A stretch of 64,000 bases of DNA from Escherichia coli (GCF_024700885.2 NZ_CP117016.1); one strand, 5' to 3'; shown: positions 1,042 through 21,973, numbered from the stretch's first letter. Translations and numbers: made by a program. Notes: generated by a model not told the origin, from the sequence alone.

Positions 1042-1049
1042 GGTCTTTT

Positions 1050-1090: not shown

Positions 1091-1162
1091 AGCCTGAACC
1101 TTTGTACTTTTTAATCAATCTTCGCCGGGGGCCATGTGCTCCCGCTGTTGTGGAGGTTACCC

Positions 1163-1930
1163 ATGTGCGAATTGCTCGGGATGAGCGCCAACGTCCCTAC
1201 CGATATCTGCTTTAGTTTCACCGGGCTTGTACAGCGTGGTGGTGGAACCGGGCCACATAAAGATGGCTGGGGCATCACCTTTTACGAAGGTAAAGGCTGT
1301 CGCACATTTAAAGATCCACAACCCAGCTTTAATTCCCCCATCGCCAAACTTGTCCAGGACTACCCGATAAAATCCTGTTCGGTGGTGGCTCATATTCGCC
1401 AGGCGAATCGGGGCGAGGTGGCGCTGGAAAATACTCACCCGTTTACCCGCGAGTTATGGGGGCGTAACTGGACTTATGCCCATAATGGGCAACTGACGGG
1501 CTATAAATCACTGGAAACCGGCAACTTCCGCCCGGTCGGTGAAACCGACAGCGAAAAAGCCTTCTGCTGGCTCCTGCATAAATTAACGCAGCGTTACCCG
1601 CGCACACCGGGCAACATGGCGGCAGTGTTTAAATATATCGCCTCACTGGCGGATGAACTGCGGCAGAAGGGCGTTTTCAACATGCTGCTTTCTGACGGGC
1701 GCTATGTAATGGCGTATTGCTCGACTAATTTACACTGGATCACCCGCCGCGCGCCGTTTGGCGTGGCAACGTTGCTGGATCAGGATGTGGAAATCGACTT
1801 CAGCTCGCAGACCACACCGAATGATGTGGTCACGGTGATTGCGACACAGCCGCTGACGGGCAATGAAACCTGGCAAAAGATTATGCCAGGCGAATGGCGC
1901 TTATTTTGCCTCGGGGAGCGTGTAGTTTGA
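1163..1930 (+). CDS. yafJ: Class II glutamine amidotransferase YafJ
   Basis: [12 protein letters not shown]... N-terminal Cys-1 Gn-AT motif; GGAGG ribosome-binding site; K-12 synteny. Confidence 0.85.
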
Positions 1931-2641
1931 TGCCAGCTGTGGCTGCACAACTTCGTGGCTTAACGGCTTGCTGACCACGTAACGACCATTGACCACAGAA
2001 ACGGTCGGTGGCTTACGGGTTTGCTCAAAGTAGTCGTAACCCGGCTTCAGCTGCTCCCAGAAGTCCTTAAAGTTGGAATATTTATGGCGCTTCATATTGG
2101 CGTCGGTCATGCGGAACGGGTAAATACTCACTTGCACGCTCGGCTGACCAAAAACCAGCGCACCAGTAACGAACTGGAAGATCTCATCAATACCCTGATT
2201 GGTCATCGCGTAGCAGCCGATGGAAACACAATCGCCGTGGATCATCAGATATTTCCCTTCATAACCATGCGCACGGTCATAGGCATTGGGGAATCCAATA
2301 TTAATCGCCTTGTAGTAACGGCTGTCTGGTTTTAACTGATTACGCTGGACGCTATAAAACCCTTCCGGGCTTTTGAAATCGCCCTGACGCTGTTTTGGCC
2401 CCAAGCCGCCGGAATATTTACAGATTTTATAGCTGTCGAGCAGTTGATATTGCTCGCCCATTTTGACGTAGAGATCGAGCGTACGTTCTTCCTTGAAGAT
2501 CTGGATGTAGACAGGGGATCCCATCAACTGCTGCTTATACTCTTTGCTCACTGGCGTGGTCGAGCTACTGCTGCCCAGCAAACCGGCAAACGAAACGCAC
2601 GGGATCAACAACATCGCAAGAATTAATGCGATTTTACGCAT
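1901..2641 (-). CDS. yafK: L,D-transpeptidase-like periplasmic protein YafK
   Basis: Signal peptide [19 protein letters not shown]; YkuD-like HGxxxxSxGC motif ([14 protein letters not shown]). Confidence 0.85.
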
Positions 2642-2932
2642 ACTGCTTATTCCTTGATAAAACGGTTACACACGCCAGGACGGCAAAATAGATCCCAAAT
2701 CGGAATAGTCTGGATTTGGAAGGCTCACATTATCACCAAAAGAGTTTTACGCAAGCCTGTCGGCGCAGGGTTTACAAATTTAGCACAGGGGCAGTTTTCA
2801 ATAGTCCGAAAAGCGCATGTATCATTTATTTCCTAAGATTATGAAACCTCAATAGTAATATGCAAATAAGCAATTAATAATCCCGTTTACTCCTCCGGTC
2901 TTTTAAAATTCTCACCTTCATTCAGCCGGTTT

Positions 2933-3691
2933 ATGTCCTTCATGTCTTCGTTCTTGCTCGGCAGATTTCTGCATCCAGGCGTGTTTTCGTTATGCGTTTT
3001 GCTCCCTTTACTCGCCAGCGCCACCACATCACATATCTCATTCAGCTACGCCGCCCGCCAGCGGATGCAAAACCGTGCGCGTTTATTAAAACAGTACCAA
3101 ACCCATCTGAAAAAACAGGCCAGCTATATTGTGGAAGGCAATGCCGAAAGCAGAAAGGCGCTGCGCCAGCACAACCGCGAACAGATAAAACAGCATCCAG
3201 AATGGTTTCCTGCGCCGCTCAAGGCAAGTGACAGACGCTGGCAGGCGCTGGCGGAGAACAACCATTTCTTAAGCAGCGACCATCTACACAACATCACCGA
3301 AGTGGCGATTCACCGCCTGGAGCAGCAGCTTGGCAAGCCTTACGTCTGGGGCGGCACGCGGCCCGATCAAGGCTTCGACTGTAGCGGGTTGGTTTTTTAT
3401 GCCTACAACAAGATCCTCGAGGCGAAGCTCCCGCGCACGGCCAATGAGATGTATCACTACCATCGGGCAACGATTGTGGCGAACAACGACCTGCGCCGGG
3501 GAGATTTGCTGTTTTTCCATATTCACAGCCGTGAAATTGCCGACCATATGGGCGTGTATCTGGGAGACGGTCAGTTTATCGAGTCGCCGCGCACGGGGGA
3601 AACCATTCGGGTAAGTCGGTTAGCTGAACCTTTCTGGCAGGATCATTTTTTAGGCGCGCGGCGGATTTTGACGGAGGAGACGATTTTGTAA
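2933..3691 (+). CDS. yafL: NlpC/P60 family peptidoglycan endopeptidase YafL (alternative start at 2942)
   Basis: NlpC/P60 catalytic region YVWGGTRPDQGFDCSGLVFYAY...H...H; signal-like N-terminus. Confidence 0.8.
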   Translation: MSFMSSFLLGRFLHPGVFSLCVLLPLLASATTSHISFSYAARQRMQNRARLLKQYQTHLKKQASYIVEGNAESRKALRQHNREQIKQHPEWFPAPLKASDRRWQALAENNHFLSSDHLHNITEVAIHRLEQQLGKPYVWGGTRPDQGFDCSGLVFYAYNKILEAKLPRTANEMYHYHRATIVANNDLRRGDLLFFHIHSREIADHMGVYLGDGQFIESPRTGETIRVSRLAEPFWQDHFLGARRILTEETIL

Positions 3692-3718
3692 ATGGGTAAT
3701 ATTGACGAACTGGCAAAA

Positions 3719-3744
3719 GGTCGGATGCCACGCGGCATCCGACC
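3719..3744. repeat. Perfect 11-bp-stem palindrome GGTCGGATGCC-acgc-GGCATCCGACC between the convergent yafL and hicB-like genes; REP-like or bidirectional terminator
   Basis: Inverted repeat read directly; no clear U-tract. Confidence 0.5.
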
Positions 3745-3747
3745 TGT

Positions 3748-4104
3748 TTACATCTGGGCTGAAAACTCACGTTCTAAGACATCAACAATGAGCTGGTTTT
3801 TTGAAATGGAATGTTGTCTGGCGACGATGGTCAGCCGCGAATCAATGTGATGAGGAACACGAAGCGTCAGGCGTTTTTGCTCTTCTTCTTCACGAAAAGG
3901 GGCAATACCGTCCTCTTCACAATCCGCCATCCACTCATCCAGCGCGCTTTCGCCTTCACGATATAATGCCTCAATACTTGTGGCTACAAAGTCACAATAA
4001 CCGTTTACATTGAGGAACTTGCCGCGAAATGCGTTGATATCGGCTTCAAATGTCACTGCGGCTGGTTGACCTTTAATTGTGATAATGTTCGATGCTTTAT
4101 TCAT
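3748..4104 (-). CDS. HicB-family antitoxin-like protein (N-terminal HicB fold plus C-terminal ribbon-helix-helix)
   Basis: 118 aa; C-terminus RLTLRVPHHIDSRLTIVARQHSISKNQLIVDVLERE is CopG/RHH-like; overlaps the upstream hicA-like gene by 8 nt. Confidence 0.6.
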   Translation of the reverse strand: MNKASNIITIKGQPAAVTFEADINAFRGKFLNVNGYCDFVATSIEALYREGESALDEWMADCEEDGIAPFREEEEQKRLTLRVPHHIDSRLTIVARQHSISKNQLIVDVLEREFSAQM

Positions 4105-4396
4105 AATCTACCCCTACACAGTTAACAAACCACTCCTTAAGACCTGCTACTGCGCCTTTATCCATCACATTCTTTGGATGTGGCTCATGTGTGCTGAATT
4201 TGGTCGTTCCAATCTGAAATTTTCGTCTGGAGCCGTTGTTATTTTTTATTGTTCCACCCACAGCTTTAATGAGTGCAACAACATCATCCCATTTAATTCC
4301 AGATTTTGGCGGCTCCGTCATTACATCGTCGAATGTTTTTCTATGACGAGAGCCTAGCGCGCTGACCTTAATCATACTATCAATCCATGACGTCAT
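4097..4396 (-). CDS. HicA/YcfA-family mRNA interferase toxin-like protein (start uncertain)
   Basis: 99 aa; ...KWDDVVALIKAVGG...THEPHPKNVMDKGAVAGLKEWF resembles the HicA double-stranded-RNA-binding-like fold; operon order toxin then antitoxin, as in hicAB. Confidence 0.55.
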   Translation of the reverse strand: MTSWIDSMIKVSALGSRHRKTFDDVMTEPPKSGIKWDDVVALIKAVGGTIKNNNGSRRKFQIGTTKFSTHEPHPKNVMDKGAVAGLKEWFVNCVGVDYE

Positions 4397-4479
4397 TGTA
4401 TGGTGTCATCGTAGTCTCTTTGCAGTGTGACGTCAATTAATGGTGTCAGGTGCTGCAAAGCATGGAAAAGATTCCTCAA

Positions 4480-6573
4480 TCAACTCAACGCCCCCATAAT
4501 CTTCAACTCCAGCTCATCCGGCACTTCGTTATACGACAGCACATGCAGCCCCGGCGCAAACAATCTCGCATAGCGCGCCAGCAAAGGACGCAACTGCGGC
4601 GGCACCAGCAGCACCGGGTCTTTCCCCGCCGCTTTCATCTGCTCCTTCACCTGCGGCATCGTGATCTGAAACTGGTTGAGCATATTCGGGTCAACCGGTA
4701 CGCTGTCGAGCATCACTTTCCCGCCCTGTTGCGCCTGATTCACCACGTTGGTCAGCAGATTTTCCAGCTCATTATTCAGCGTATACACCGTCAGCTCCTG
4801 CTTGCGAACGAGCGGATGGGTAATGCTGCGCCGTAGCGCCAGGCGCACATCAGCTGCCAGCAGAATATGATCTTTGGTCACTGTGCTACTGGCGACCAGC
4901 ACGGTGGCGATGGTGACGATATCGCGCAGGGAAACGCCTTCAGTCAGTAGCGCCCGGTACACTTTCAGCAACTGGCTGTAATTGAGCGCCGCGCTCAAAT
5001 CTTCCGCCAGTCGCGGTGCCATCGACGACAAACGGTTATGCAGCTGAGTAATATCGTCATAGTTAAACAAATCAGGAATATAGCTGCGGACAATCTTGTT
5101 CACATGGGTGGCAATCACGCTGGCGCTGTCGATCACCTGATACCCCATATTCAGCGCCTTCGCTTTCTGCGCAGGCTGAATCCAGGTGACCGGCATCCCG
5201 TACGCCGGGTCGTTCCCCAATACGCCGTCTATCTCGCCGTAGGTTTCGCTGGAGGGCAGGGCCATCAGTTTATCCGCCGGAATATCCGCTTCATCAGCCT
5301 TAATGCCGTTGATGAAAATGGCGTACTGGCTGGGCTTGAGGCGGAAATTTTCCCGAATGCGGATCTCCGGCAGCAGCACGCCGTTGCCGTCGGAAATCAC
5401 CTGCCGCACGCCGCGAATCCGCTGGGTGAGCGGGTTACCTTGGGCTTTATCGACCAGCGCCACCAGCTTGTAGCCGAGGCTTAAGCTGATGGGCTCGATC
5501 AGCGGAATGGTTTCCCAACTGACCTGTTGCTCGCTGGTTTCAGTGATAGTGCGGGTCAGCGTTTCGAGACTTTTCTCTTCTGCCTCCGCCGCCTGCGGGC
5601 GTTTGCTCATCCGCCAGCCGGTAAAGCCAAGCAGGGCGCTGAACAGCAAAAACGGCAGATGCGGCATTCCCGGCACCACCGCCAGTACGAACATGATCCC
5701 GGTGGCGGTGTAGAGCACCGACGGGCTTGCCAGCAGCTGGTGGCGCACGTCATGGGCGATATCGCCGTTGTCGCTGACGCGGGTGACGATAATCGCCGCC
5801 GCGGTGGAAAGCAGCAGGGAAGGGATCTGCGCCACCAGGCCGTCGCCGATGGTCATCAGCACATATTGCTGGAAGGCGGCGTCGGCGCTCAGGTTGTATT
5901 TGAAGATCCCGATACAGACGCCGCCGATCAGGTTGATCGCCAGAATCATCATCCCGGCTATGGCATCCCCACGCACAAACTTCGATGCCCCGTCCATCGC
6001 GCCGTAGAAATCGGCCTCGCTGGCAACATCTTTACGCCGTGTTTGCGCCTGCGCCTGGTTGATCAACCCGGCGTTAAGATCGGCGTCAATCGCCATCTGT
6101 TTGCCGGGCATCGCGTCCAGGGTAAAGCGGGCGGAAACCTCGGAAATACGCTCGGCCCCTTTGGTGACGACGATAAAGTTGATGATCATCAGGATGATAA
6201 ACACCACGAAACCGACGACAAAGTTGCCGCCAATCACCACCTGACCAAATGACTCAATCACCTTACCTGCTGCGCCCGCGCCGAGATGCCCGTGCAGTAG
6301 CACCACGCGCGTAGAAGCAACGTTCAGCGTCAGGCGCATTAAGGTGGTGATCAGCAAAATGGTCGGGAACAGGCTGAATTCCAGCGGCCTTTTCGCCGAC
6401 ACCGCCACCAGCAGCACCATCACCGCCAGCACAATGTTGAAGGTGAACAGAATATCCAGCAGCGCAGGCGGCAGCGGCAAAATAACCATCGCCAGAATAC
6501 ACAGGATCACCAGCGGCACGCCGGGATTACCGCCGCGCAGTAGCGCGAGGAACGATTTAGTTGTTTTCGCCAT
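4480..6573 (-). CDS. lfhA: Flag-2 (lateral flagellar) export apparatus protein FlhA homolog, intact 697 aa
   Basis: FlhA/type III secretion inner-membrane family with N-terminal TM domain plus cytoplasmic domain; K-12 carries only a fragment here (fhiA). Confidence 0.85.
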   Translation of the reverse strand: MAKTTKSFLALLRGGNPGVPLVILCILAMVILPLPPALLDILFTFNIVLAVMVLLVAVSAKRPLEFSLFPTILLITTLMRLTLNVASTRVVLLHGHLGAGAAGKVIESFGQVVIGGNFVVGFVVFIILMIINFIVVTKGAERISEVSARFTLDAMPGKQMAIDADLNAGLINQAQAQTRRKDVASEADFYGAMDGASKFVRGDAIAGMMILAINLIGGVCIGIFKYNLSADAAFQQYVLMTIGDGLVAQIPSLLLSTAAAIIVTRVSDNGDIAHDVRHQLLASPSVLYTATGIMFVLAVVPGMPHLPFLLFSALLGFTGWRMSKRPQAAEAEEKSLETLTRTITETSEQQVSWETIPLIEPISLSLGYKLVALVDKAQGNPLTQRIRGVRQVISDGNGVLLPEIRIRENFRLKPSQYAIFINGIKADEADIPADKLMALPSSETYGEIDGVLGNDPAYGMPVTWIQPAQKAKALNMGYQVIDSASVIATHVNKIVRSYIPDLFNYDDITQLHNRLSSMAPRLAEDLSAALNYSQLLKVYRALLTEGVSLRDIVTIATVLVASSTVTKDHILLAADVRLALRRSITHPLVRKQELTVYTLNNELENLLTNVVNQAQQGGKVMLDSVPVDPNMLNQFQITMPQVKEQMKAAGKDPVLLVPPQLRPLLARYARLFAPGLHVLSYNEVPDELELKIMGALS

Positions 6574-7696
6574 CCAGTTTAAGCACCTCTTTGGGAATGG
6601 AAATATGTCTGTTCAGGGCCGGGCGCGGCTGTGCGCCGTCGCGCCAGTGTTTCATTTGCAGGACGTAGGTCAGAACGTGGGCGATGGCCCGGTAAAGCTG
6701 AAACGGAATTTGCTGGTTCACCTGGGTGGTGTAGTAAACCGAGCGCGCCAGCCGCGGGAACTCGACCACTTCCACCTGATTCTCAGCAGCGACCTGACGA
6801 ATATAGAGGGCGATTTCATCGGTGCCTTTCGCCACCACAAACGGCGCGGCGGCGCGCGACTGGTCGTACTGCAACGCTACGGCGTAGTGGGTCGGGTTGG
6901 TGATCACCACGTTGGCTTTTGGCACCACTTTGCGGATTTGCCCCATCGCCAGCTGCCGTTGCAGCCGCCGCACGCGTGCCTTCACTTCCGGCTTGCCTTC
7001 CTGATTTTTGTACTCTTCTTTCAGCTCCTGCTTGGTCATCTTCAGTCCTTTGGTGAACAGGGCTTTCGCCAGCGGCACGTCGATTAACGCAAAGAAGATA
7101 AACAGGATGACAAAGTTGCGCATCACGCTGGCGTAGAGCGATAAACCGTCATTCATCGCCAGTTTGAACGGTAGTGCCTGCAGGCCGAGAAAGGCGGCAA
7201 AGTTATTGCGCAGGCTTACCCACAGCATCACCAGCACCACCACCGACTTCACCGTCATCTTTCCCGTTTCCGCCAGATGTTCGCTGGAAAACAGTCGCCC
7301 AATGCCTTTTAACGGGCTGATTTTGCTGAAATCCGGGAGGATTTTTTTCGGCAGAAACAGCCAGCCGCCGGGCACCAGCGAAGAGAGCAGCGCGGCGGCG
7401 GGCATCGGTAGCAAGGTAAGAATAAACTTGCCGAGAATTAACAGGTGATGGCGCAGAAACTGGCCGAGCACCTGCGGGTTATTAATCTCCTGCGCATACT
7501 GATGCACGCTGATAAAACTCTCGCGTACAAAATCGGCGTACCACGGAAAACTGCTGGAGATCACCACAAACGCCGCAAACAGGCTCGCCGCTAGCCCCAT
7601 ATCCTTCGAGCGCGGCAGTTGCCCCTCTTCACGCGCTTTACGCAGCTTTTGCGCCGAGGGTTTCTCTGTTTTTTCTTCGCTGCTGCTATCCGCCAT
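6557..7696 (-). CDS. lfhB: Flag-2 export apparatus protein FlhB homolog
   Basis: 379 aa; FlhB family with the NPTH autocleavage motif (VITNPTHYAVAL); overlaps lfhA by 17 nt. Confidence 0.85.
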   Translation of the reverse strand: MADSSSEEKTEKPSAQKLRKAREEGQLPRSKDMGLAASLFAAFVVISSSFPWYADFVRESFISVHQYAQEINNPQVLGQFLRHHLLILGKFILTLLPMPAAALLSSLVPGGWLFLPKKILPDFSKISPLKGIGRLFSSEHLAETGKMTVKSVVVLVMLWVSLRNNFAAFLGLQALPFKLAMNDGLSLYASVMRNFVILFIFFALIDVPLAKALFTKGLKMTKQELKEEYKNQEGKPEVKARVRRLQRQLAMGQIRKVVPKANVVITNPTHYAVALQYDQSRAAAPFVVAKGTDEIALYIRQVAAENQVEVVEFPRLARSVYYTTQVNQQIPFQLYRAIAHVLTYVLQMKHWRDGAQPRPALNRHISIPKEVLKLDGENN

Positions 7697-8468
7697 AGTG
7701 ACCTTTCAGCGCGTCGAGTTGCTGCAACACAAAATTCGCCAGATGCAGATAGTGATCCGGCAGGTTGTAGAGCAGGGTGGCGAAGCAGACCAGCCCCGCC
7801 AGCATGTTGATGGGAAAGCCGAGCGAAAAGAGGTTCAGCGGCGGCGCGATGCGGTTGAGCAGGCCAAAGCAGCCCTGCACAATCAGCATGATAAAGGTGG
7901 TCGGCAGCGCCAGCAGCGATGCGGACGCCAGCACCCAGCTAAAGGCCAGTGCGATGGTGCGCAGGGGTTGCGGATGCAGCGCGTTGCCAATCGGCCAGTA
8001 GGTGAAGCCCTTATACAAAACACTCACCAGCAACAGATGCCCGTCCATGGCAAAAAACAGCAGGATTGCGTAGACGTTGATTAACTCCGCCAGCACGGTG
8101 GTCGATGCGCCGCTGCTCGGGTCGTTCATCACCGCCATGCTCATCCCCATATTGAACGAGAGAATTTGCCCGGCCAGTTGCAGCGCCAGAAACAGAAACT
8201 GAAACATCAGCCCGAACAACATGCCCCATAATATTTGCTCCACCGTCAGGATCAGGCTGTTGAGCGATAGCAGGTCGTGGGGAATGGGATGGGGGATCAA
8301 CGGCGTGATGATGATTGCCAGCGCCAGCGACAAAATGATCCGCACACGCACGGTCAGGGCGCTGTTATCCAGCACCGGCACATAGCGCAGAAACGCCATA
8401 ATGCGCACGAAGGGAAACCACAGCCCCATCGCCAGATCCATCAGTTGCGTAACGTCGCTTGTACGCAT
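7686..8468 (-). CDS. lfiR: Flag-2 FliR homolog (start taken at MRTSDV...)
   Basis: Polytopic membrane protein of FliR size immediately downstream of the fliQ homolog. Confidence 0.75.
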   Translation of the reverse strand: MRTSDVTQLMDLAMGLWFPFVRIMAFLRYVPVLDNSALTVRVRIILSLALAIIITPLIPHPIPHDLLSLNSLILTVEQILWGMLFGLMFQFLFLALQLAGQILSFNMGMSMAVMNDPSSGASTTVLAELINVYAILLFFAMDGHLLLVSVLYKGFTYWPIGNALHPQPLRTIALAFSWVLASASLLALPTTFIMLIVQGCFGLLNRIAPPLNLFSLGFPINMLAGLVCFATLLYNLPDHYLHLANFVLQQLDALKGHYGG

Positions 8469-8469
8469 C

Positions 8470-8742
8470 TTAATGCACCAGCAACGCGGCCTGGGTAAAC
8501 AGATGAATACACAGATCATGCAACTGGATAATCATCCATTTGCCGCACACGCCCAGCACCACCAGCGTGACAATCAGCCTCGGCAAAAAACTCAGGGTCT
8601 GTTCGTTAATCTGCGTCACCGCCTGGAACACGCTCACCAGCAGGCCAACCAGCAGGCTCGGCACTACCAGCACGGAAACCAGCAAAATCACCACTTTTAT
8701 GCCGCTCGCGACAATGTCGGCGGCTACGTCTACGGTCAACAT
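8470..8742 (-). CDS. lfiQ: Flag-2 FliQ homolog, 90 aa
   Basis: FliQ signature ...QAVTQINEQTLSF.PRLIV... Confidence 0.8.
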   Translation of the reverse strand: MLTVDVAADIVASGIKVVILLVSVLVVPSLLVGLLVSVFQAVTQINEQTLSFLPRLIVTLVVLGVCGKWMIIQLHDLCIHLFTQAALLVH

Positions 8743-8744
8743 AA

Positions 8745-9497
8745 TCAGCCCAGCCCCAGCCCGCGAATGCTGGTGGTGAGCGTACCGATTGTCAGCGACC
8801 AGCCGTCGATCAGCACAAACAGCATCAGTTTAAAGGGCAGCGAAACAATCAGCGGCGACAGCATCATCATCCCCATCGCCATCAATACGCTGGCGACAAT
8901 CAGGTCGATAACCAGAAACGGGATGTAAATCATAAAGCCAATCTGGAAGGCGGTTTTCAGCTCGCTCAACACATAGGCAGGCACCACGATGGAGAGATCC
9001 TGATCGGCGGCATTGCCCTTCGCGCCGCCGATGGTCATGATTTGCGCCATCGCTTTTTTGTCGGTCTGCGCCAGCATAAAGCGTTTGAGCGGCGTCGCGG
9101 CGGTGCTTAATGCATCGGTCAGGGTAATCTGATCGTTTTCGAACGGCACTACCGCGTGGTCGTAAATATTGAGCCAGATAGGGCGCATCACCAGCATAGT
9201 GAGTGAGAGCGCAATACCAATCAAAATGCGGTTTGGCGGCGTTTGTTGCAGCCCCAGCGCCTGGCGCAGCAGCGACAGCACGATAATAAAGCGCGTAAAG
9301 CAGGTCATCATCAGCACCATCGTCGGCAGCAAACCGACGAGGGTCATCAGAATCAGTACCTGAATTTTGACGCTGTACTCCTGAGTGTTGCCGTGGGTGA
9401 CCACGTTAAGCAGCGCAATATCGCCACCCTGGGCTAACGCCAGCGGCGCAAGCGCCAGCAGCCCAAGGCCCAGCGTCAGTTGAGTGCGGCGTTTCAT
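8745..9497 (-). CDS. lfiP: Flag-2 FliP homolog
   Basis: 250 aa; signal peptide plus FliP family membrane topology; position in the fliPQR set. Confidence 0.8.
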   Translation of the reverse strand: MKRRTQLTLGLGLLALAPLALAQGGDIALLNVVTHGNTQEYSVKIQVLILMTLVGLLPTMVLMMTCFTRFIIVLSLLRQALGLQQTPPNRILIGIALSLTMLVMRPIWLNIYDHAVVPFENDQITLTDALSTAATPLKRFMLAQTDKKAMAQIMTIGGAKGNAADQDLSIVVPAYVLSELKTAFQIGFMIYIPFLVIDLIVASVLMAMGMMMLSPLIVSLPFKLMLFVLIDGWSLTIGTLTTSIRGLGLG

Positions 9498-9865
9498 GGT
9501 GCCAGGTCGTTGATATCGCGGGTGTTAAACTCCAGCACGCGCAGGCCGTACTTCTCGTTGACCACCACCACTTCTGCTTTGCCCAACAGGATATTGTTTA
9601 CTTTAATATCCAGCGGCTCCCCGGCGAGCTTATCCAGCTCAATCACCGTGTCGTCGTCGATGTTAAGGAGGTCGGCTAACATGATCTCTACTGATGACAC
9701 TTCCAGCGTTAAGGTCACCGGAATGCGTTTTAGCAGCGTCATCGAGTCGGAAAAACGGTCTTCCAGGCGGGTGACCAGCGTTTCAGCGTCGGCAGATTTC
9801 GCGACAGGCGCAACTTCATCGGTGAGGCCAAAATCCCCGGCTAAAATATCTTCTTGCTTACTCAT
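9494..9865 (-). CDS. lfiN: Flag-2 FliN-like switch protein (start at MSKQEDIL)
   Basis: C-terminal SpoA/FliN domain (VTLTLEVSSVEIMLADLLNI...ELDKLAGEPLDIKVNNILLGKAEVVVV). Confidence 0.75.
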   Translation of the reverse strand: MSKQEDILAGDFGLTDEVAPVAKSADAETLVTRLEDRFSDSMTLLKRIPVTLTLEVSSVEIMLADLLNIDDDTVIELDKLAGEPLDIKVNNILLGKAEVVVVNEKYGLRVLEFNTRDINDLAP

Positions 9866-10709
9866 GGCTATTCTCATTTTTGCCCGCCAGCTCCGACAAA
9901 AACAGTTTGTCTTTGTCTTCCACAATCAGGGCGCTAAATAATTCAGATTGCCCAATCGCCACCGGGAACGTTTCTCCCAGCGAGATGGGTAAAATATCCC
10001 CGGCTTTTATCTGCGTGAGATCCGCGACATTCAGCGACAGCTCGGCGATTTTGACGTTCAGGGTCAGCGGCAGAGAGCGGATAATCTCTTTAATCAGGGC
10101 CGGTTTATTAACGGATTTCGCCACCTGCTGCGGTTTACTGTGCTCGCTGTGGCGGATCAGATTCAAAATAAAATCGGTGTGGGCGTCGTCGAGCAAAATA
10201 CGAAAACTGCTCTCTTCATCGCCCGCAAGGGTAAAGGTTAATTGATACGCCCAGTGGGTAATCACCGTGCTGCTATCCAGCTTTAATTTCAGCGCAATAC
10301 CGGAGGTTTGCAGATTAAATATCAGCGTGCAGATATCCAGCGCGAGTCGGTTTTTTAAACGAGTTTCGGTTTTGGTCGGCAGCCCGTTATGCGCTTTCGC
10401 CTCTTCAAGAGAGGACTCCAGACCATAAAAATTGCCCAGCAGCATTAACAATAAGGAGCGATCAATATCAAACGCCAGATGCCCGACCTGGGAAACCATC
10501 AGTTCGGCGTTTTTATTAATAATATCCATTTCGCAGCCAATCTTTTTTAAGGTGATATTGCTGCGATGCTTTTTGAGAAAGTAGCTGCCCAGATGCGAAT
10601 CAATCACGTCAAAATTCCCCGTAAACAGGGTCGGCAGGCGATGGTAGGGGCGTCCGAGCCGATTACCTTCTAATTTAAAGATGCCTGGCGTTTTACTGTA
10701 CTTCAGCAT
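9858..10709 (-). CDS. lfiM: Flag-2 FliM-like switch protein
   Basis: 283 aa; directly upstream of and overlapping the fliN homolog; size and position consistent with FliM. Confidence 0.7.
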   Translation of the reverse strand: MLKYSKTPGIFKLEGNRLGRPYHRLPTLFTGNFDVIDSHLGSYFLKKHRSNITLKKIGCEMDIINKNAELMVSQVGHLAFDIDRSLLLMLLGNFYGLESSLEEAKAHNGLPTKTETRLKNRLALDICTLIFNLQTSGIALKLKLDSSTVITHWAYQLTFTLAGDEESSFRILLDDAHTDFILNLIRHSEHSKPQQVAKSVNKPALIKEIIRSLPLTLNVKIAELSLNVADLTQIKAGDILPISLGETFPVAIGQSELFSALIVEDKDKLFLSELAGKNENSHE

Positions 10710-10888
10710 GGCTTACTTTCTCTGCTGTAATGGTATGGGTGTTTCTGTGCACGCAAATCCGGCTGTGACACAAGGTGAGGTATTAAATAGAGGGGGAGTG
10801 AAAGGGGCAAATTATTAATAGGATGAAAAAATAATTAATCGATTAATTGCTTAATGGGAGTGATTTTCGCCAATCAGTCTGCGGTCTG

Positions 10889-10930
10889 TCCCCTCGCCCC
10901 ATCCGGGGAGAGGGTTAGGGTGAGGGGGCA
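10889..10930. repeat. Second copy of the GC-rich element seen at 1050-1090 (CCCCTCGCCCC...GGGGAGAGGGTTAGGGTGAGGGGG)
   Basis: Motif GGGAGAGGG-N-GGGTGAGGG shared with 1050-1090; imperfect hairpin. Confidence 0.55.
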
Positions 10931-11081
10931 TCACAGATGTCCAAATTAACAGTATTAATATCTAACTAATTGTTTACCATCAAATAATATTTTTATTATC
11001 GTTTAATTCGAACTTGTTAATCCCGCCGGTGATACGCTTCAGAACATCCTGTTTTCTGTCGCTACTTATATCGTTCACCCT

Positions 11082-11349
11082 ATGTCTGAACTTATTGCAA
11101 CTGCCGCTTCCAGCATTAACGCTTTTACTCTGGCAAAGCGTGTCGCCGCATTTAACGTGCCGGTGCTCATTCAGGGCGAAACCGGCGCGGGCAAAGAATG
11201 CGTGGCAAAATATATTCACACCGTCGCCTTTGGTGAAAATGATAACGCGCCCTATATCGGCGTGAACTGCGCGGCGATCCCGGAAAACATGCTGGAAGCT
11301 ACATTATTTGGCTACGACAAAGGCGCATTTACCGGCGCAATTGCCAGCG
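11082..11349 (+). pseudogene. lafK: N-terminal about 90 codons of a sigma-54-dependent activator (LafK-like), truncated by IS1
   Basis: AAA+ sigma-54 interaction Walker A GETGAGKE; the reading frame runs straight into the IS1 left inverted repeat at 11350. Confidence 0.7.
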
Positions 11350-11404
11350 GGTGATGCTGCCAACTTACTGATTTAGTGTATGATGGTGTTTTTGAGGTGC
11401 TCCA

Positions 11405-11680
11405 GTGGCTTCTGTTTCTATCAGCTGTCCCTCCTGTTCAGCTACTGACGGGGTGGTGCGTAACGGCAAAAGCACCGCCGGACATCAGCGCTATCTCTGC
11501 TCTCACTGCCGTAAAACATGGCAACTGCAGTTCACTTACACCGCTTCTCAACCCGGTACGCACCAGAAAATCATTGATATGGCCATGAATGGCGTTGGAT
11601 GCCGGGCAACCGCCCGCATTATGGGCGTTGGCCTCAACACGATTTTCCGCCATTTAAAAAACTCAGGCCGCAGTCGGTAA
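11405..11680 (+). CDS. insA: IS1 InsA (91 aa)
   Basis: [43 protein letters not shown]... canonical InsA. Confidence 0.95.
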
Positions 11681-12102
11681 CCTCGCGCATACAGCCGGGC
11701 AGTGACGTCATCGTCTGCGCGGAAATGGACGAACAGTGGGGATACGTCGGGGCTAAATCGCGCCAGCGCTGGCTGTTTTACGCGTATGACAGGCTCCGGA
11801 AGACGGTTGTTGCGCACGTATTCGGTGAACGCACTATGGCGACGCTGGGGCGTCTTATGAGCCTGCTGTCACCCTTTGACGTGGTGATATGGATGACGGA
11901 TGGCTGGCCGCTGTATGAATCCCGCCTGAAGGGAAAGCTGCACGTAATCAGCAAGCGATATACGCAGCGAATTGAGCGGCATAACCTGAATCTGAGGCAG
12001 CACCTGGCACGGCTGGGACGGAAGTCGCTGTCGTTCTCAAAATCGGTGGAGCTGCATGACAAAGTCATCGGGCATTATCTGAACATAAAACACTATCAAT
12101 AA
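11599..12102 (+). CDS. insB: IS1 InsB' frame; the InsAB' transposase is made by a -1 frameshift
   Basis: Canonical IS1 InsB sequence ...[72 protein letters not shown]. Confidence 0.9.
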
Positions 12103-12117
12103 GTTGGAGTCATTACC

Positions 12118-12273
12118 GGAATGCCTGACGGAAATGAAATTTGAAGATTTGCGCGGCATGAAAATATCCGCCATCCGCAAACTGATTTCTGATGCGCTAA
12201 AGAAAGATCTTCAGCGTCGCAAAATGAGCGCACCGTATAAGGATTTGCTGGTGAAAAAAGTGGTCTTCCAGTA
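12118..12273 (+). pseudogene. 3'-terminal remnant (about 51 codons) of the gene that preceded lafS in the Flag-2 cluster, now abutting the IS1 right end
   Basis: Open frame ...EFEDLRGMKISAIRKLISDALKKDLQRRKMSAPYKDLLVKKVVFQ* begins at the IS1 boundary with no start codon. Confidence 0.5.
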
Positions 12274-12293
12274 ATCACCAGGCGGATATAAAC

Positions 12294-13010
12294 ATGCTAC
12301 AGGACGTATTCGAGTCAGAAGAATTTGCTGCCGCGCCGGTATTAACCCCGCAGCAGGAGAGCCACTACTTGCAGGCCTATTTACCGTTGGTGCGTAAAGT
12401 GGTGCGGCAACTTGCCCCGCAGTGTAATTGCATTATTGATCGTCAGGATATGGAACAAATGGCGTTAATGGGGCTGCTTAATGCCATTCGTCGCTACGGG
12501 CTGCCGGACGAAGGTTTTGCGGGCTATGCCGTGCACCGTATTCGCGGCGCGATCCTGGATGAGCTGCGCGCTCTCGACTGGCGACCGCGCCAGCTGCGAC
12601 AGAAATATCATCAGATGAAAGATCTGATACGCGAAACGCGTAAAAAACTGGGGCACGAACCGGAGTGGTCAGAACTGGCCGTGGAAGGGATTTCGCATGA
12701 AGATTATATCGAATATCAGCAACTGGAAGGGGCGGAAACGCTCGCCAGCCTTGACGAACTGCTGAACGGCGAAGGGCCAGGCATTCCACTTGTTGGCAGG
12801 GAACTGGAAGATCAGTTTGTCACCCAGCAAATGCTGCAATACGCGCTTTCACTATTAAGCGAAAAAGAGCAACTGATCCTCTCCATGTATTACCAGCATG
12901 AGATGAATCTCAAAGAGATTGCGCTGGTATTAGGGCTAACCGAGGCCCGAATTTGTCAACTGAATAAACAGATCGCGCAGAAAATTCGTGATTTTGTCTA
13001 TCCGAATTAA
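12294..13010 (+). CDS. lafS: Flag-2 FliA-type (sigma-28 family) sigma factor
   Basis: Sigma-70 regions 2 and 4 (…LSEKEQLILSMYYQHEMNLKEIALVLGLTEARICQLNKQ…). Confidence 0.85.
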   Translation: MLQDVFESEEFAAAPVLTPQQESHYLQAYLPLVRKVVRQLAPQCNCIIDRQDMEQMALMGLLNAIRRYGLPDEGFAGYAVHRIRGAILDELRALDWRPRQLRQKYHQMKDLIRETRKKLGHEPEWSELAVEGISHEDYIEYQQLEGAETLASLDELLNGEGPGIPLVGRELEDQFVTQQMLQYALSLLSEKEQLILSMYYQHEMNLKEIALVLGLTEARICQLNKQIAQKIRDFVYPN

Positions 13011-13022
13011 AGTGAAGAAATC

Positions 13023-13886
13023 ATGCAAAAAATATTAGGTTTACTGGTGGTGCTCGGCTGCGTATTTGGCGGTTATTTTGAAGCGGGCGGGCAACTAGTG
13101 GCTATCTGGCAACCGGCGGAGATGATCATTATTTTGGGTGCCGGTTTCGGGGCGATGATTATTGGTAATCCGAAACATGTGCTGAAAGAGATTGCTCATC
13201 AAATTAAAGGCGTGATCAGTAAAAAACAGCTCGGGCCGGAGTTTCAGCGTCAGCTATTAATGTGCCTGTATGAGTTGCTCGAAATGGTACAAAACGGCGG
13301 CCTGCGCATGTTGGATCAGCATATTGAGCAGCCGGAAGAGAGCACCGTTTTCCAGAAATACCCGCTGGTGTTAACCCAGAAGCGGCTGGTGACCTTTATT
13401 GCCGATAACTTTCGCCTGATGGCGATGGGCAAAATCGACGCCCACGAACTGGAAGGCATTCTCGATCAGGAGCTGGATACCGCCGAAGAGTCGCTGCTCA
13501 CGCCGTCGCGCTCGCTGCAACGTACCGCCGAAGCGATGCCGGGATTTGGTATTTGCGCGGCGGTGCTGGGCATCATCATCACCATGCAGTCGATTGATGG
13601 ATCTATCGCCCTGATTGGCCTGAAAGTGGCGGCGGCTCTGGTGGGGACGTTTTTAGGCGTCTTTATCTGCTACTGCCTGATGGACCCGCTTGCCAACGCC
13701 ATGGAACAACAGGCGCGGGCGGAACATTCTTTGCTGGAATGTGTGCGTACCGTGCTGGTGGCGCAGGCGGGCGGTAAACCGACGCTGCTGGCGGTAGACG
13801 CCGGGCGTAAGCTGCTGCATCTAGCGTCCAAACCGACCTTCGCCAACCTCGACGCGTGGGTGAATGCGATGCTGGAGCAAGAATAA
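13023..13886 (+). CDS. lafT: Flag-2 MotA-like stator protein
   Basis: 287 aa; MotA/TolQ/ExbB family with 4 TM segments; precedes the motB-like gene. Confidence 0.8.
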   Translation: MQKILGLLVVLGCVFGGYFEAGGQLVAIWQPAEMIIILGAGFGAMIIGNPKHVLKEIAHQIKGVISKKQLGPEFQRQLLMCLYELLEMVQNGGLRMLDQHIEQPEESTVFQKYPLVLTQKRLVTFIADNFRLMAMGKIDAHELEGILDQELDTAEESLLTPSRSLQRTAEAMPGFGICAAVLGIIITMQSIDGSIALIGLKVAAALVGTFLGVFICYCLMDPLANAMEQQARAEHSLLECVRTVLVAQAGGKPTLLAVDAGRKLLHLASKPTFANLDAWVNAMLEQE

Positions 13887-13888
13887 GC

Positions 13889-14812
13889 ATGAGAAAGACG
13901 GGCAACCGCCGCGAGCGTGGGGCAAAAACCACCATCGTCCGGCGGCAGATCAAAAAGAATCATGCCGGGCATCACGGCGGGGCGTGGAAGGTGGCGTTCG
14001 CCGACTTTACTTTGGCAATGATGGCGCTATTTATGACGCTGTGGATTGTCAACAGCGTCAGTAAATCCGAGCGTGAAAGCATTATCGCCGCGCTGCACGG
14101 GCAGTCGATTTTCAATGGCGGCGGGTTGTCGCCGTTAAATAAAATCAGCCCGTCTCATCCGCCAAAACCTGCCACCGTGGCGGTGCCGGAAGAGACGGAG
14201 AAAAAAGCGCGTGACGTCAATGAGAAAACGGCGCTGCTGAAGAAGAAATCAGCCACTGAGCTTGGCGAGCTGGCGACCAGTATCAACACCATTGCCCGTG
14301 ATGCACATATGGAAGCGAATCTGGAGATGGAGATTGTTCCCCAGGGACTGCGCGTGCTGATTAAAGATGACCAGAACCGCAATATGTTTGAACGCGGCAG
14401 CGCACAGATTATGCCGTTCTTTAAAACTTTGCTGGTGGAGCTCGCGCCAGTGTTCGACTCGCTCGATAACAAAATTATTATTACCGGGCATACCGATGCG
14501 ATGGCCTACAAAAACAATATCTACAACAACTGGAACCTTTCGGGCGATCGCGCGCTTTCGGCTCGTCGGGTGCTGGAAGAGGCCGGAATGCCGGAAGATA
14601 AAGTGATGCAGGTGAGCGCGATGGCGGACCAGATGCTGCTGGACGCGAAAAATCCGCAAAGCGCGGGCAACCGACGCATTGAGATTATGGTGCTGACCAA
14701 AAGTGCGTCCGATACGCTGTATCAATACTTTGGTCAGCATGGGGATAAAGTGGTGCAGCCGCTGGTGCAAAAGCTGGATAAGCAGCAGGTGCATTCGCAG
14801 CGAACGCGCTAG
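13889..14812 (+). CDS. lafU: Flag-2 MotB-like stator protein (K-12 mbhA homolog), start at MRKTGN
   Basis: N-terminal TM segment plus C-terminal OmpA-like peptidoglycan-binding domain (IIITGHTDAM...LSGDRALSARRVLEE). Confidence 0.8.
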   Translation: MRKTGNRRERGAKTTIVRRQIKKNHAGHHGGAWKVAFADFTLAMMALFMTLWIVNSVSKSERESIIAALHGQSIFNGGGLSPLNKISPSHPPKPATVAVPEETEKKARDVNEKTALLKKKSATELGELATSINTIARDAHMEANLEMEIVPQGLRVLIKDDQNRNMFERGSAQIMPFFKTLLVELAPVFDSLDNKIIITGHTDAMAYKNNIYNNWNLSGDRALSARRVLEEAGMPEDKVMQVSAMADQMLLDAKNPQSAGNRRIEIMVLTKSASDTLYQYFGQHGDKVVQPLVQKLDKQQVHSQRTR

Positions 14813-14850
14813 ATGCTGAATCTTTACGCATTTCTCAAACCCTGAAATCA

Positions 14851-14866
14851 CTGTATACTTTACCAG
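14851..14866. promoter_or_regulatory. LexA (SOS) box CTGTATACTTTACCAG upstream of dinB
   Basis: Matches CTGT-N8-ACAG; 17 bp upstream of the dinB start. Confidence 0.8.
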
Positions 14867-14882
14867 TGTTGAGAGGTGAGCA

Positions 14883-15938
14883 ATGCGTAAAATCATTCAT
14901 GTGGATATGGACTGCTTTTTCGCAGCGGTGGAGATGCGCGACAATCCCGCCCTGCGCGATATCCCTATTGCTATTGGCGGCAGCCGCGAACGTCGGGGGG
15001 TGATCAGCACCGCCAATTATCCCGCGCGTAAATTTGGCGTACGTAGCGCTATGCCGACAGGGATGGCGCTCAAATTATGCCCACATCTCACCTTGCTTCC
15101 GGGGCGCTTTGACGCCTACAAAGAAGCCTCAAATCATATCCGTGAAATCTTCTCGCGCTACACCTCGCGTATTGAACCGTTGTCACTGGATGAAGCCTAT
15201 CTCGATGTCACTGATAGCGTCCATTGCCACGGTTCTGCGACCCTCATCGCCCAGGAAATCCGCCAGACGATTTTCAGCGAGCTGCAACTGACGGCGTCTG
15301 CGGGCGTGGCACCAGTAAAGTTTCTCGCCAAAATCGCCTCCGACATGAATAAACCCAACGGCCAGTTTGTGATTACGCCGGCAGAAGTTCCGGCATTTTT
15401 ACAAACCTTACCACTGGCAAAAATCCCCGGCGTCGGCAAAGTCTCGGCGGCAAAACTGGAAGCGATGGGGCTGCGGACCTGCGGTGATGTACAAAAGTGT
15501 GATCTGGTGATGCTGCTTAAACGCTTTGGCAAATTTGGCCGCATTTTGTGGGAGCGTAGTCAGGGGATTGACGAACGCGATGTTAACAGCGAACGGTTGC
15601 GAAAATCCGTCGGCGTGGAACGCACGATGGCGGAAGATATTCATCACTGGTCTGAATGTGAAGCGATTATCGAGCGGCTGTATCCGGAACTTGAACGCCG
15701 TCTGGCAAAGGTGAAACCTGATTTACTGATTGCTCGCCAGGGGGTGAAATTAAAGTTTGATGATTTTCAGCAAACCACTCAGGAGCACGTCTGGCCGCGG
15801 CTGAATAAAGCTGATCTAATCGCCACCGCGCGTAAAACCTGGGATGAACGCCGCGGCGGGCGCGGTGTGCGACTGGTGGGGCTGCATGTGACGTTGCTTG
15901 ACCCTCAAATGGAAAGACAACTGGTGCTGGGATTATGA
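14883..15938 (+). CDS. dinB: DNA polymerase IV
   Basis: 351 aa; [34 protein letters not shown]-family polymerase. Confidence 0.95.
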
Positions 15939-15989
15939 TGTATACTATTATGTCTATTCTGGTGTGCATTATTATGAGGGGATCACTGT

Positions 15990-16283
15990 ATGCATCGAAT
16001 TCTCGCTGAAAAATCGGTCAATATCACTGAGTTACGTAAAAACCCAGCTAAATACTTTATTGATCAACCGGTTGCGGTTCTTTCTAATAATCGCCCCGCA
16101 GGATATCTCTTAAGTGCCAGCGCATTCGAAGCGTTAATGGACATGCTTGCTGAACAAGAGGAGAAAAAACTGGTTAAGGCGCGCTTCCGTCCGAGTGCCG
16201 CAAGATTAGAGGAAATTACACGCCGCGCTGAACAATATCTTAATGATATGACGGATGATGATTTCAATGACTTTAAGGAATAA
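15990..16283 (+). CDS. yafN: Antitoxin YafN
   Basis: 97 aa Phd/YefM-like; synteny dinB-yafN-yafO-yafP. Confidence 0.85.
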   Translation: MHRILAEKSVNITELRKNPAKYFIDQPVAVLSNNRPAGYLLSASAFEALMDMLAEQEEKKLVKARFRPSAARLEEITRRAEQYLNDMTDDDFNDFKE

Positions 16284-16285
16284 GG

Positions 16286-16684
16286 ATGCGGGTATTCAAA
16301 ACAAAACTTATTTGCCTGCAACTTACAGCAGAGGAACTTGATGCGTTAACGGCGGATTTTATTTCCTATAAGCGTGACGGTGTTTTGCCAGATATATTTG
16401 GTCGCGATGCACTCTACGACGACTCGTTTACCTGGCCATTAATCAAATTTGAGCGAGTTGCTCATATTCATCTGGCAAATGTGAATAATCCATTTCCGCC
16501 ACAGTTGCGCCAATTCAGCAGAACGAATGACGAAGCGCATTTGGTATATTGTCAGGGTGCGTTTGATGAGCAAGCATGGTTGCTCATTGCCATTCTGAAA
16601 CCTGAACCTCATAAACTGGCTCGAGATAACAACCAAATGCATAAAATTGGGAAAATGGCAGAAGCGTTTCGCATGCGTTTTTGA
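16286..16684 (+). CDS. yafO: Ribosome-dependent mRNA interferase toxin YafO
   Basis: 132 aa; coupled to yafN (3-nt gap). Confidence 0.85.
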   Translation: MRVFKTKLICLQLTAEELDALTADFISYKRDGVLPDIFGRDALYDDSFTWPLIKFERVAHIHLANVNNPFPPQLRQFSRTNDEAHLVYCQGAFDEQAWLLIAILKPEPHKLARDNNQMHKIGKMAEAFRMRF

Positions 16685-16693
16685 ATTTATATT

Positions 16694-17146
16694 ATGAATA
16701 ACATACAAATAAGAAACTATCAGCCTGGCGATTTTCAGCAACTATGCGCTATTTTCCTTAGAGCGGTTACGATGACCGCCAGTCAGCATTATTCACCACA
16801 ACAAATTGCCGCCTGGGCGCAGATTGACGAATCTCGCTGGAAGGAGAAACTCGCGAAATCACAAGTATGGGTTGCGATCATTAATGCACAACCGGTTGGT
16901 TTTATTTCCCGCATTGAACACTATATCGATATGTTATTTGTTGACCCTGAATACACCCGCCGTGGGGTTGCCAGCGCTTTGTTAAAACCTTTGATTAAGT
17001 CTGAATCCGAACTTACGGTGGACGCAAGCATAACCGCAAAACCCTTTTTTGAACGTTATGGTTTTCAGACAGTTAAGCAGCAGCGCGTTGAATGCAGGGG
17101 AGCGTGGTTTACTAATTTTTCTATGCGATATAAACCGCAACATTAA
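16694..17146 (+). CDS. yafP: GNAT family N-acetyltransferase YafP
   Basis: 150 aa; GNAT fold (…RRGVASALL…). Confidence 0.8.
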   Translation: MNNIQIRNYQPGDFQQLCAIFLRAVTMTASQHYSPQQIAAWAQIDESRWKEKLAKSQVWVAIINAQPVGFISRIEHYIDMLFVDPEYTRRGVASALLKPLIKSESELTVDASITAKPFFERYGFQTVKQQRVECRGAWFTNFSMRYKPQH

Positions 17147-17378
17147 ATTCAGCTTGCAATGAAAATAACACCCGCCTGGTATGTGCGCGTTTTCTTATTC
17201 CACAAACTGCAAGGAGGTAAATCATGACAAATCCTTTATCAATGACTCTTTGCAGACCTTTCCAGGATTAATTCTTTTTTCTTGCCCTGGATTCGTCTGC
17301 CATTTCCTGATTTTTATATTTATATACTCTAAATAATTCGAGTCGCAGTACATGCAACTTGAAGTATGACGAGTATAA

Positions 17379-17945: not shown

Positions 17946-18001
17946 TGAAGGATGAAACTGCCGGAAGGCGATTAAACGCCATCCGGCAGCAAATCAAATA
18001 A

Positions 18002-20178: not shown

Positions 20179-20269
20179 TCTTTTCAACGCCTGGCACTGC
20201 CGGGCGTTGTTCTTTTTAACTTCAGGCAGGTTACAATAGTTTCCAGTAAGTATTCTGGAGGCTGCATCC

Positions 20270-21514: not shown

Positions 21515-21973
<459 letters not shown>

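Follow-up and report, generated by a model that had tools for sequence, protein, structure and literature searches.

The Flag-2 locus of Escherichia coli 042 was described by Ren et al. (2005), as cited in PMC3032704 and PMC6993521. The 042 cluster is complete except for a frameshifted lfgC. K-12-type genomes carry a scar at the same locus, represented by the fhiA and mbhA pseudogenes, and have lost the flagellar structural genes. The breakpoints of this scar are fixed, one in lfhA and one in lafU, at the equivalents of positions 6192 and 14044 of the window (the whole 64,000-nucleotide stretch that was analysed), so that only the equivalents of 4480-6192 and 14044-14811 are kept (positions 1-1713 of the left query and 1751-2518 of the right query). 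The scar lacks IS1 and has been attributed to recombination at direct repeats. De Maayer et al. (2020, PMC6993521) name transposition, IS1 included, among the main forces behind en bloc deletion of flag-2. Here we describe a locus in which the middle of the cluster has been replaced by IS1 and both ends are preserved.

A Flag-2 locus reduced to its ends

The window is 100% identical to the chromosome of E. coli MLI114 (NZ_CP117013.1). In the RefSeq annotation, the Flag-2 site of this strain has yafL/hicAB on one side and dinB on the other, and its gene order is lfhAB-lfiRQPNM (4480-10709, minus strand), lafK', IS1, 'lafF and lafSTU (12294-14812). Strain 042 shares the yafL-dinB site, the gene order and the orientation, and BLAST gives nucleotide identities of 96.3% and 97.5% for the two retained blocks; the border at lfhA differs, with hicAB in MLI114 and rayT in 042. 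The features of the locus are as follows.

4480-6573, minus: lfhA (FlhA-type export gate), intact, 697 aa; Pfam FHIPEP 1-656/657; 691/697 aa identical to 042
6557-7696, minus: lfhB (FlhB), intact, 379 aa; Pfam Bac_export_2, full length; 371/379 aa identical to 042
7686-8468, minus: lfiR (FliR), intact, 260 aa; Pfam Bac_export_1; RefSeq CDS; 257/260 aa identical to 042
8470-8742, minus: lfiQ (FliQ), intact, 90 aa; Pfam Bac_export_3; 90/90 aa identical to 042
8745-9497, minus: lfiP (FliP), intact, 250 aa; Pfam FliP 1-191/191; 248/250 aa identical to 042
9494-9865, minus: lfiN (FliN-type switch protein), intact, 123 aa; Pfam FliMN_C; 123/123 aa identical to 042
9858-10709, minus: lfiM (FliM-type switch protein), intact, 283 aa; Pfam FliMN_C; 282/283 aa identical to 042
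10710-11081, no strand: spacer between the divergent genes lfiM and lafK, with no change from strain 1190; inside an 11,349-bp stretch that is 100% identical
11082-11349, plus: lafK 5' fragment, 89/328 codons of a sigma-54 activator; translation, Pfam; RefSeq pseudogene 'missing C-terminus'
11350-12117, plus: complete IS1 (IS1B-type), 768 bp, insA-insB' (CDS 11405-12102); sequence, inverted repeat, Pfam, RefSeq
12118-12274, plus: lafF (FliL-family) 3' remnant; RefSeq pseudogene 'missing N-terminus'; breakpoint mapped
12294-13010, plus: lafS (sigma-28/FliA-type sigma factor), intact, 238 aa; Pfam Sigma70_r2, r4; 234/238 aa identical to 042
13023-13886, plus: lafT (MotA-type stator), intact, 287 aa; Pfam MotA_N, MotA_ExbB; 285/287 aa identical to 042
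13889-14812, plus: lafU (MotB-type stator), intact, 307 aa; Pfam MotB_plug, OmpA; 306/307 aa identical to 042

The original prediction, made from the sequence alone, held that the seven genes of the left block and the three of the right block are intact, and this is borne out: all ten have full-length Pfam matches, and their products equal the 042 orthologues in length, contain no internal stops and are 97.9-100% identical to them in amino acid sequence. The start of lafU is taken from RefSeq (13889) rather than at the GTG at 13856. The LfhA and LafS protein accessions are identical in MLI114 and in strain 1190, which carries a full cluster. The full Flag-2 set comprises about 39 conserved flagellar genes; ten intact genes and two fragments are present here, and the MLI114 locus is a degenerate member of the Enterobacterales Flag-2 loci. 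A scan for sigma-54 promoters (TGGCAC-N5-TTGC, at most one mismatch) returned seven matches across the window, against a chance expectation of 7.0, and none in the lfiM-lafK spacer. Simple scans of 10700-11090 and 12100-13100 with a looser GG/GC-anchored sigma-54 pattern and with sigma-28 patterns gave no match.

The two fragments face each other across IS1. lafK was thought to be cut after about 90 codons, and translation places 89 native codons before the element. The fragment retains Walker A and the GAFTGA motif and has lost what follows in the AAA+ domain, as well as the lid and the HTH; the Pfam Sigma54_activat match covers profile positions 3-82 of 168, compared with full length in LafK of strain 1190. 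The open frame of the fragment closes as ...GYDKGAFTGAIAS-G-stop, three residues past GAFTGA, with the stop codon supplied by the IS1 end. On the other side the first kept base is 12118, and the in-frame segment 12119-12274 encodes 51 codons plus a stop. The 51-codon gene remnant noticed beside IS1 can now be named: it is lafF/FliL, 100% identical to the C-terminal end (residues 105-155) of the FliL-family protein of strain 1190, which has 155 aa.

The element itself is complete. Its left inverted repeat, GGTGATGCTGCCAACTTACTGAT, occurs once in the window, against zero by chance, and its right end reads ...GGAGTCATTACC. The ends were placed by reading the sequence against known IS1 termini; five of the 23 positions are mismatched between the two repeats, which is why an inverted-repeat finder did not report them. 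The Pfam domains Zn_ribbon_InsA, HTH_Tnp_IS1 and DDE_Tnp_IS1 are all full length, and the RefSeq annotation gives the IS1B-family transposase as intact and dependent on a frameshift ('programmed frameshift'). Identity to the IS1 copies of other genomes is 93-99%. A simple IS1 insertion is expected to generate a target-site duplication of 8-9 bp. Strain D97-1 provides a positive control: a simple insertion of IS1 in its lfiM is flanked by an 8-bp duplication, cagttcag. At the MLI114 element there is no duplication, as had been predicted; the 9-bp flanks, ttgccagcg and ggaatgcct, differ. This is what would be expected had a rearrangement come after insertion.

Extent, loss and recency of the deletion

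Comparison with strain 1190 defines the deletion to the base. Window positions 1-11349 and 12118-22198 are 100% identical to that genome, with no mismatch in 21,430 bp; exactly 31,796 bp is missing, and the 768-bp IS1 stands in its place. In the coordinates of 042 the interval runs from lafK codon 90 to lafF codon 104 and measures 28,904 bp. Relative to strain 1190 it held 34 whole genes and parts of lafK and lafF. Removal of the hook, rod, filament and chaperone genes had been anticipated, and they are indeed gone, but that list was too short. The functions lost from the locus are the MS ring (lfiF), FliG, the FliHIJ export ATPase complex, the rod, the hook and the L/P rings, together with the hook-associated proteins, flagellin, the cap, the chaperones, FlgM/FlgN, LafZ and the cargo genes.

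We reject the alternative that the middle segment was moved elsewhere or inverted. The genes flanking the deletion are collinear with the native order, and the rod/hook block of this allele, at an identity of at least 99%, is present in exactly seven relatives and in no MLI114 replicon. Since it is absent from every replicon of the strain, the segment has been lost rather than moved.

The deletion is private to one strain and recent. Each of the two IS1 junctions occurs in one of 5,426 complete E. coli genomes, MLI114 itself, among the matches listed; for some 380-420 IS1-rich records the best 40 pieces each were examined, and a shared junction there could in principle escape. No other genome in this set has IS1 at either breakpoint site, again among the matches listed, and exact 35-36-mers spanning the left and right junctions found no match in metagenome contigs. 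All seven same-allele relatives retain the middle of the cluster. MLI121 lies 14 cgMLST alleles from MLI114 (PMC10198576).

Partial 'ends-only' Flag-2 states account for roughly 1.5-2.4% of Flag-2-positive complete genomes. A census of the rod/hook region with a 4.3-kb lfgB-lfgG query recovered 1,269 genomes, and a 23.4-kb query for the middle recovered 1,186, a number that undercounts full clusters because variable cargo reduces coverage. In about three quarters of the 5,426 complete genomes the match to the left block is only partial, and all of those sampled have K-12-type endpoints. At least four other independent IS1-bounded Flag-2 deletions are present, in E. coli PEC408, Z503, J6 and AR_0081. 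As in MLI114, a single complete IS1 without a duplication replaces the middle of the cluster; what survives in these strains is lfhAB-lfiRQPN to the left and either lafU alone or lafTU to the right. Their left breakpoints fall in the lfiM-lafK spacer or within lfiM and their right breakpoints within lafS or lafT, and their IS1 copies lie in the opposite orientation to that of MLI114 and are 93-99% identical to it. These differences in breakpoint, orientation and IS1 variant indicate that the four events arose independently of the one in MLI114. In J6 decay has gone further, with an internal stop in lfhB.

How did the middle of the cluster disappear?

That it was lost through an IS1-associated deletion of some kind is close to certain. 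Adjacent deletions by IS1, known classically from the gal and lac regions, start at an IS1 end, retain the element and leave no duplication. At the MLI114 locus one IS occupies the junction, a duplication is absent, the flanks are collinear and the interval is gone from the genome, all hallmarks of such an event, and we regard adjacent deletion by one IS1 as the probable route. A single IS1 would have entered Flag-2, in lafK or lafF, in the recent ancestry of MLI114. By intramolecular replicative transposition, one end of the element may then have targeted another position some 32 kb distant in the same DNA molecule, and the intervening 31,796 bp would have left as a circle and been lost. The product would be one IS1 joining lafK, up to codon 89, to lafF from codon 105 onwards, the 9-bp sequences on its two sides being unrelated. 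Neither the matches listed from the 5,426 complete genomes nor the metagenome contigs contain a progenitor with IS1 and a duplication at one breakpoint only, and it is for this reason that we infer the one-element route and the order of events rather than read them from an ancestor.

A possible, though less probable, route is that two IS1 copies inserted independently in the same orientation, one in lafK and one in lafF, and that RecA-dependent recombination between them left one hybrid IS1 with unmatched flanks. Such recombination yields the exact structure seen, one copy of IS1 between dissimilar flanks with the remaining genes still in parental order; IS1 does enter Flag-2, as the lfiM insertion of D97-1 demonstrates, and IS1-rich strains carry similar deletions. 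However, the route requires two insertions within 32 kb. An 11.5-kb query containing IS1 matched only seven places in the MLI114 chromosome, compared with 21-39 in the other strains with IS1 deletions, which makes two independent insertions in so short an interval less likely than one; the genome survey, among the matches listed, also offers no chromosome with IS1 at either site. Either route, with one element or with two, ends in the same structure. The original prediction of an IS1-mediated adjacent deletion therefore stands as regards the IS1-associated loss of the middle, but its single-element route is not distinguishable from two-copy recombination.

It is very improbable that illegitimate recombination first joined lafK to lafF and that IS1 later landed on the junction. 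Flag-2 deletions without an IS are known in 52F4 (lfiF'-'lafB) and PSJ-22 (lfiF'-'lafU), and a weak microhomology, ATTGC(C)AG, lies immediately 5' of both MLI114 breakpoints. Nevertheless, a later insertion should have left an 8-9 bp duplication, the element would have had to hit the junction base exactly, and none of the 5,426 complete genomes carries a lafK-lafF junction without IS1. Mis-assembly at IS copies is a well-known problem, but an assembly artefact, in which two IS1 copies and the middle genes really exist and the repeat was collapsed by the assembler, is just as hard to credit, given that the RefSeq assembly of MLI114 is closed and circular and in its second version, that none of its replicons contains, at an identity of at least 99%, the rod/hook block belonging to the missing 32 kb and that the same type of structure occurs independently in four other genomes.

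Implications for Flag-2 decay

What does the deletion mean for the decay of Flag-2? From its gene content and established flagellar biology, the MLI114 locus is predicted to be unable to build a flagellum, because structural and export genes are missing; the sigma-54 activator LafK is also truncated. The locus had been proposed to represent an intermediate between the full cluster of 042 and the K-12 remnant. In gene content it does, and the deletion lies wholly within the interval missing from K-12-type genomes. As a path the proposal fails: the K-12-type breakpoints are inside lfhA and lafU, whereas both genes are full length in MLI114. The MLI114 state is a parallel path of decay, a private side branch and not a stage towards the K-12 scar.

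The ten surviving genes are presumably intact only for want of time to decay. IS1 and 'lafF-lafS-lafT-lafU read in the same direction, and it is conceivable that read-through from IS1 might express LafS and LafTU without LafK control, and that these might cross-talk with the regulon or the motor of the primary flagellum. That lfhAB-lfiRQPN and lafU were kept in each of five independent IS1 deletions would then reflect selection rather than chance. We consider this reading highly unlikely. With zero divergence from intact relatives, the conservation of the surviving genes is uninformative.

IS1-marked decay of Flag-2 is an ordinary, already published process, of which MLI114 is one more case, and the importance of this deletion is slight outside bookkeeping. 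A report on a small panel found Flag-2 either present or entirely absent (PMC5422975); in contrast, MLI114, the four other IS1-bounded deletions and the two IS-less ones establish that partial, 'ends-only' states exist. For annotation, MLI114 should be scored as functionally Flag-2-negative despite matches to ten Flag-2 genes. The strain provides a base-accurate example of the dismantling of a cryptic Flag-2 locus, caught early enough for its flanks to be free of substitutions.

Gene content of the Flag-2 remnant

The 11.5 kb surrounding the deletion site are 100% identical to the chromosome NZ_CP117013.1 of E. coli MLI114, an ESBL-producing stool isolate from Mali (PMC10198576). In the window, the remnant of Flag-2, the lateral flagellar gene cluster, is flanked by yafL/hicAB and dinB and is arranged as follows.

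4480-6573, minus strand, lfhA, complete gene
6557-7696, minus strand, lfhB, complete gene
7686-8468, minus strand, lfiR, complete gene
8470-8742, minus strand, lfiQ, complete gene
8745-9497, minus strand, lfiP, complete gene
9494-9865, minus strand, lfiN, complete gene
9858-10709, minus strand, lfiM, complete gene
divergent lfiM-lafK spacer, 372 bp
11082-11349, plus strand, lafK fragment
11350-12117, IS1
12119-12274, plus strand, lafF fragment
12294-13010, plus strand, lafS, complete gene
13023-13886, plus strand, lafT, complete gene
13889-14812, plus strand, lafU, complete gene

The original prediction held seven export and switch genes and three distal genes to be intact. This is borne out: all 10 have full-length Pfam matches to the expected families and equal their E. 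coli 042 orthologues in length, with 97.9-100% amino-acid identity and no internal stops. The sigma-54 activator gene lafK, thought to be cut by IS1 after about 90 codons, retains 89 native codons ending ...GYDKGAFTGAIAS, to which translation into the IS1 end adds one codon and a TGA stop. The fragment still encodes Walker A and the GAFTGA loop; the remaining AAA+ domain, the lid and the Fis-type HTH, all present in the 328-aa protein of the close relative strain 1190, are missing. The 51-codon gene remnant noticed 3' of IS1 proved to be lafF, matching residues 105-155 of this 155-aa FliL-family protein at 100% identity. IS1 is complete, as proposed: it is exactly 768 bp long, its canonical left end is found once in the window against a chance expectation of zero, its InsA and DDE domains are full, and its frameshift-dependent transposase is annotated as intact (RefSeq). 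Direct comparison of the nine-base flanks, ttgccagcg and ggaatgcct, which are unrelated, revealed no target-site duplication; a simple IS1 insertion in lfiM of strain D97-1, where the expected 8-bp duplication (cagttcag) is present, served as positive control for this criterion. All elements of the initial observation are thereby confirmed.

The surroundings display further features. The lfiM-lafK spacer contains a G+C-rich imperfect palindrome, ccctcgccccatccggggagagggttagggtgaggggg (10890-10930), resembling an enterobacterial intergenic repeat element. The hicA/hicB toxin-antitoxin pair (3748-4375) lies between yafL and lfhA, where E. coli 042, PEC408 and 52F4 instead carry the REP-associated transposase gene rayT, so that the border of the locus is itself variable. 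The rtcB-family ligase and prfH genes, intact in E. coli 042, persist only as short pseudogene fragments (~17391-17945), the same as in strain 1190. A P4-like satellite prophage occupies ~25838-37417 beside tRNA-Thr, downstream of proA. RefSeq also annotates in it a TOPRIM/DUF927 primase, a polarity-suppression protein and an Ogr/Delta-like protein, with a retron reverse transcriptase and effector and a RipA-family membrane protein as cargo.

~25838-25913, tRNA-Thr
~26078-27268, satellite integrase
~35530-36498, retron effector
~36485-37417, retron reverse transcriptase, St85-family

The deleted interval and the role of IS1

The Flag-2 cluster is complete in strain 1190 (NZ_CP023386.1), which matches window positions 1-11349 and 12118-22198 with no mismatches or gaps over 21,430 bp. 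Its two breakpoints are separated by 31,796 bp (record 3825081-3856876), in place of which MLI114 carries the 768-bp IS1. Alignment to E. coli 042, suggested earlier as the means of defining the deletion, gives 28,904 bp (NC_017626.1 291561-320464). This 2.9-kb gap in deleted length is mainly due to a type II restriction-modification pair absent from 042; in strain 1190 the endonuclease and DNA cytosine methyltransferase genes lie between lfgM and lfgA (27805-30522 of the strain 1190 locus stretch, L003). The interval in strain 1190 encompasses 34 whole genes: lfiE, lfiF, lfiG, lfiH, lfiI and lfiJ; a cytidylyltransferase, a large glycosyltransferase and a hypothetical gene; lfgN, lfgM and lfgA through lfgL; the restriction-modification pair; lafW, a RelE/ParE toxin-antitoxin pair and lafZ; and lafA, lafB, lafC, lafD and lafE. 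At its ends it takes in 239 codons from the 3' part of lafK and 104 from the 5' part of lafF. The lfgB-lfgG block of the MLI114-lineage allele is found at at least 99% identity in exactly seven genomes, MLI114 not among them, and thus the segment was lost, not relocated.

How was the interval removed? The segments on either side remain collinear with the parental order and are joined by one complete IS1 whose flanks are unrelated, the hallmark of an IS-associated deletion. The original prediction specified an IS1-mediated adjacent deletion; the IS1-associated loss of the middle genes stands, and the one-IS1 subtype is the route we favour, with some confidence. IS1 would insert once in the cluster, and one of its ends would then transpose intramolecularly to a nearby target, removing the intervening DNA. 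Among the matches listed for 5,426 complete E. coli genomes no progenitor was found, and hence we infer this route from its product. Recombination between two directly oriented IS1 copies would yield the same product and is a credible but distinctly less probable course: it needs two hits within 32 kb, made less likely by the low number of matches to a query containing IS1: 7 places in the MLI114 chromosome, as against 21-39 in the other IS1-deletion strains. A deletion followed by IS1 insertion is disfavoured by the lack of a target-site duplication and by a synthetic IS1-free lafK-lafF junction, which occurs in 0 of 5,426 complete genomes, so that homologous strains sharing the junction without IS1, which would have spoken against the prediction, did not emerge. 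An assembly artefact is unlikely, as the MLI114 assembly is closed and devoid of the rod/hook block of the interval.

A BLAST right-flank match running 10 bases over the synthetic junction drew attention to an imperfect microhomology, ATTGC(C)AG, directly 5' of both breakpoints (ATTGCCAGCG in lafK, 11340-11349; ATTGCAGT in lafF, strain 1190, reverse complement). It is probably a chance occurrence, neither IS1 route explaining or requiring it.

Distribution of the junction and other Flag-2 deletions

The proposed junction survey returned the left and the right IS1 junction each in one of the 5,426 genomes, MLI114 itself, among the matches listed, where ~400 IS1-rich records were represented by 40 pieces each and a shared junction could escape detection. 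Neither junction was found in a metagenome contig collection. The identical lfiM-lafK-lfiE-lfiF allele is kept intact in seven genomes (1190, E700025, AST20, AST240 and three O166:H15 strains). Taken together, the confinement of the junctions to MLI114 and these intact alleles indicate that the event is private to MLI114 and recent.

At a coverage of at least 80%, the lfhA-lfiM left block is present in 1,289 genomes, the lafSTU right block in 1,300 and the rod/hook block in 1,269; ~20-31 genomes, roughly 1.5-2.4% of those positive for Flag-2, therefore have an end block but no middle. Around three quarters of all genomes surveyed show a partial left-block match only. In K-12-type remnants the last 1,713 nt of lfhA are fused to the last 768 nt of lafU, with the same endpoints in every genome sampled. 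Inspection of the best partial matches uncovered four more IS1-bounded middle deletions (strains PEC408, Z503, J6 and AR_0081). Like that of MLI114 they have no target-site duplication, but their breakpoints differ, IS1 is in the opposite orientation and is a different variant, 93-99% identical to the MLI114 copy; they are independent events. Two deletions are IS-less, in 52F4 (lfiF'-'lafB) and PSJ-22 (lfiF'-'lafU). Left breakpoints of altered loci concentrate in lfiM, the lfiM-lafK spacer and lafK.

Implications for Flag-2 decay

What does the deletion mean for MLI114? The sigma-54 activator of its Flag-2 system is destroyed and, judging by the genes present and by established flagellar biology, no flagellum can be assembled from this locus. 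Simple scans around the junction recognised no sigma-54 or sigma-28 promoters. Since no difference separates the retained genes from their counterparts in intact relatives, their integrity reflects too little time rather than selection. J6, whose lfhB has an internal stop, is an older example of the same deletion type. The proposal that MLI114 is intermediate between 042 and K-12 is valid for gene content, but not as a stage in a lineage: the K-12 scar has unrelated breakpoints, and the MLI114 lineage otherwise retains the full cluster.

Published work already covers the Flag-2 locus, the scar left in K-12 and the frequent decay of the locus. At least one conserved gene is missing from 22% of flag-2 loci, and transposition, IS1 being one of the families named, is a major cause of en bloc deletion (De Maayer et al. 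2020, PMC6993521). The MLI114 allele adds a new case to this known process.
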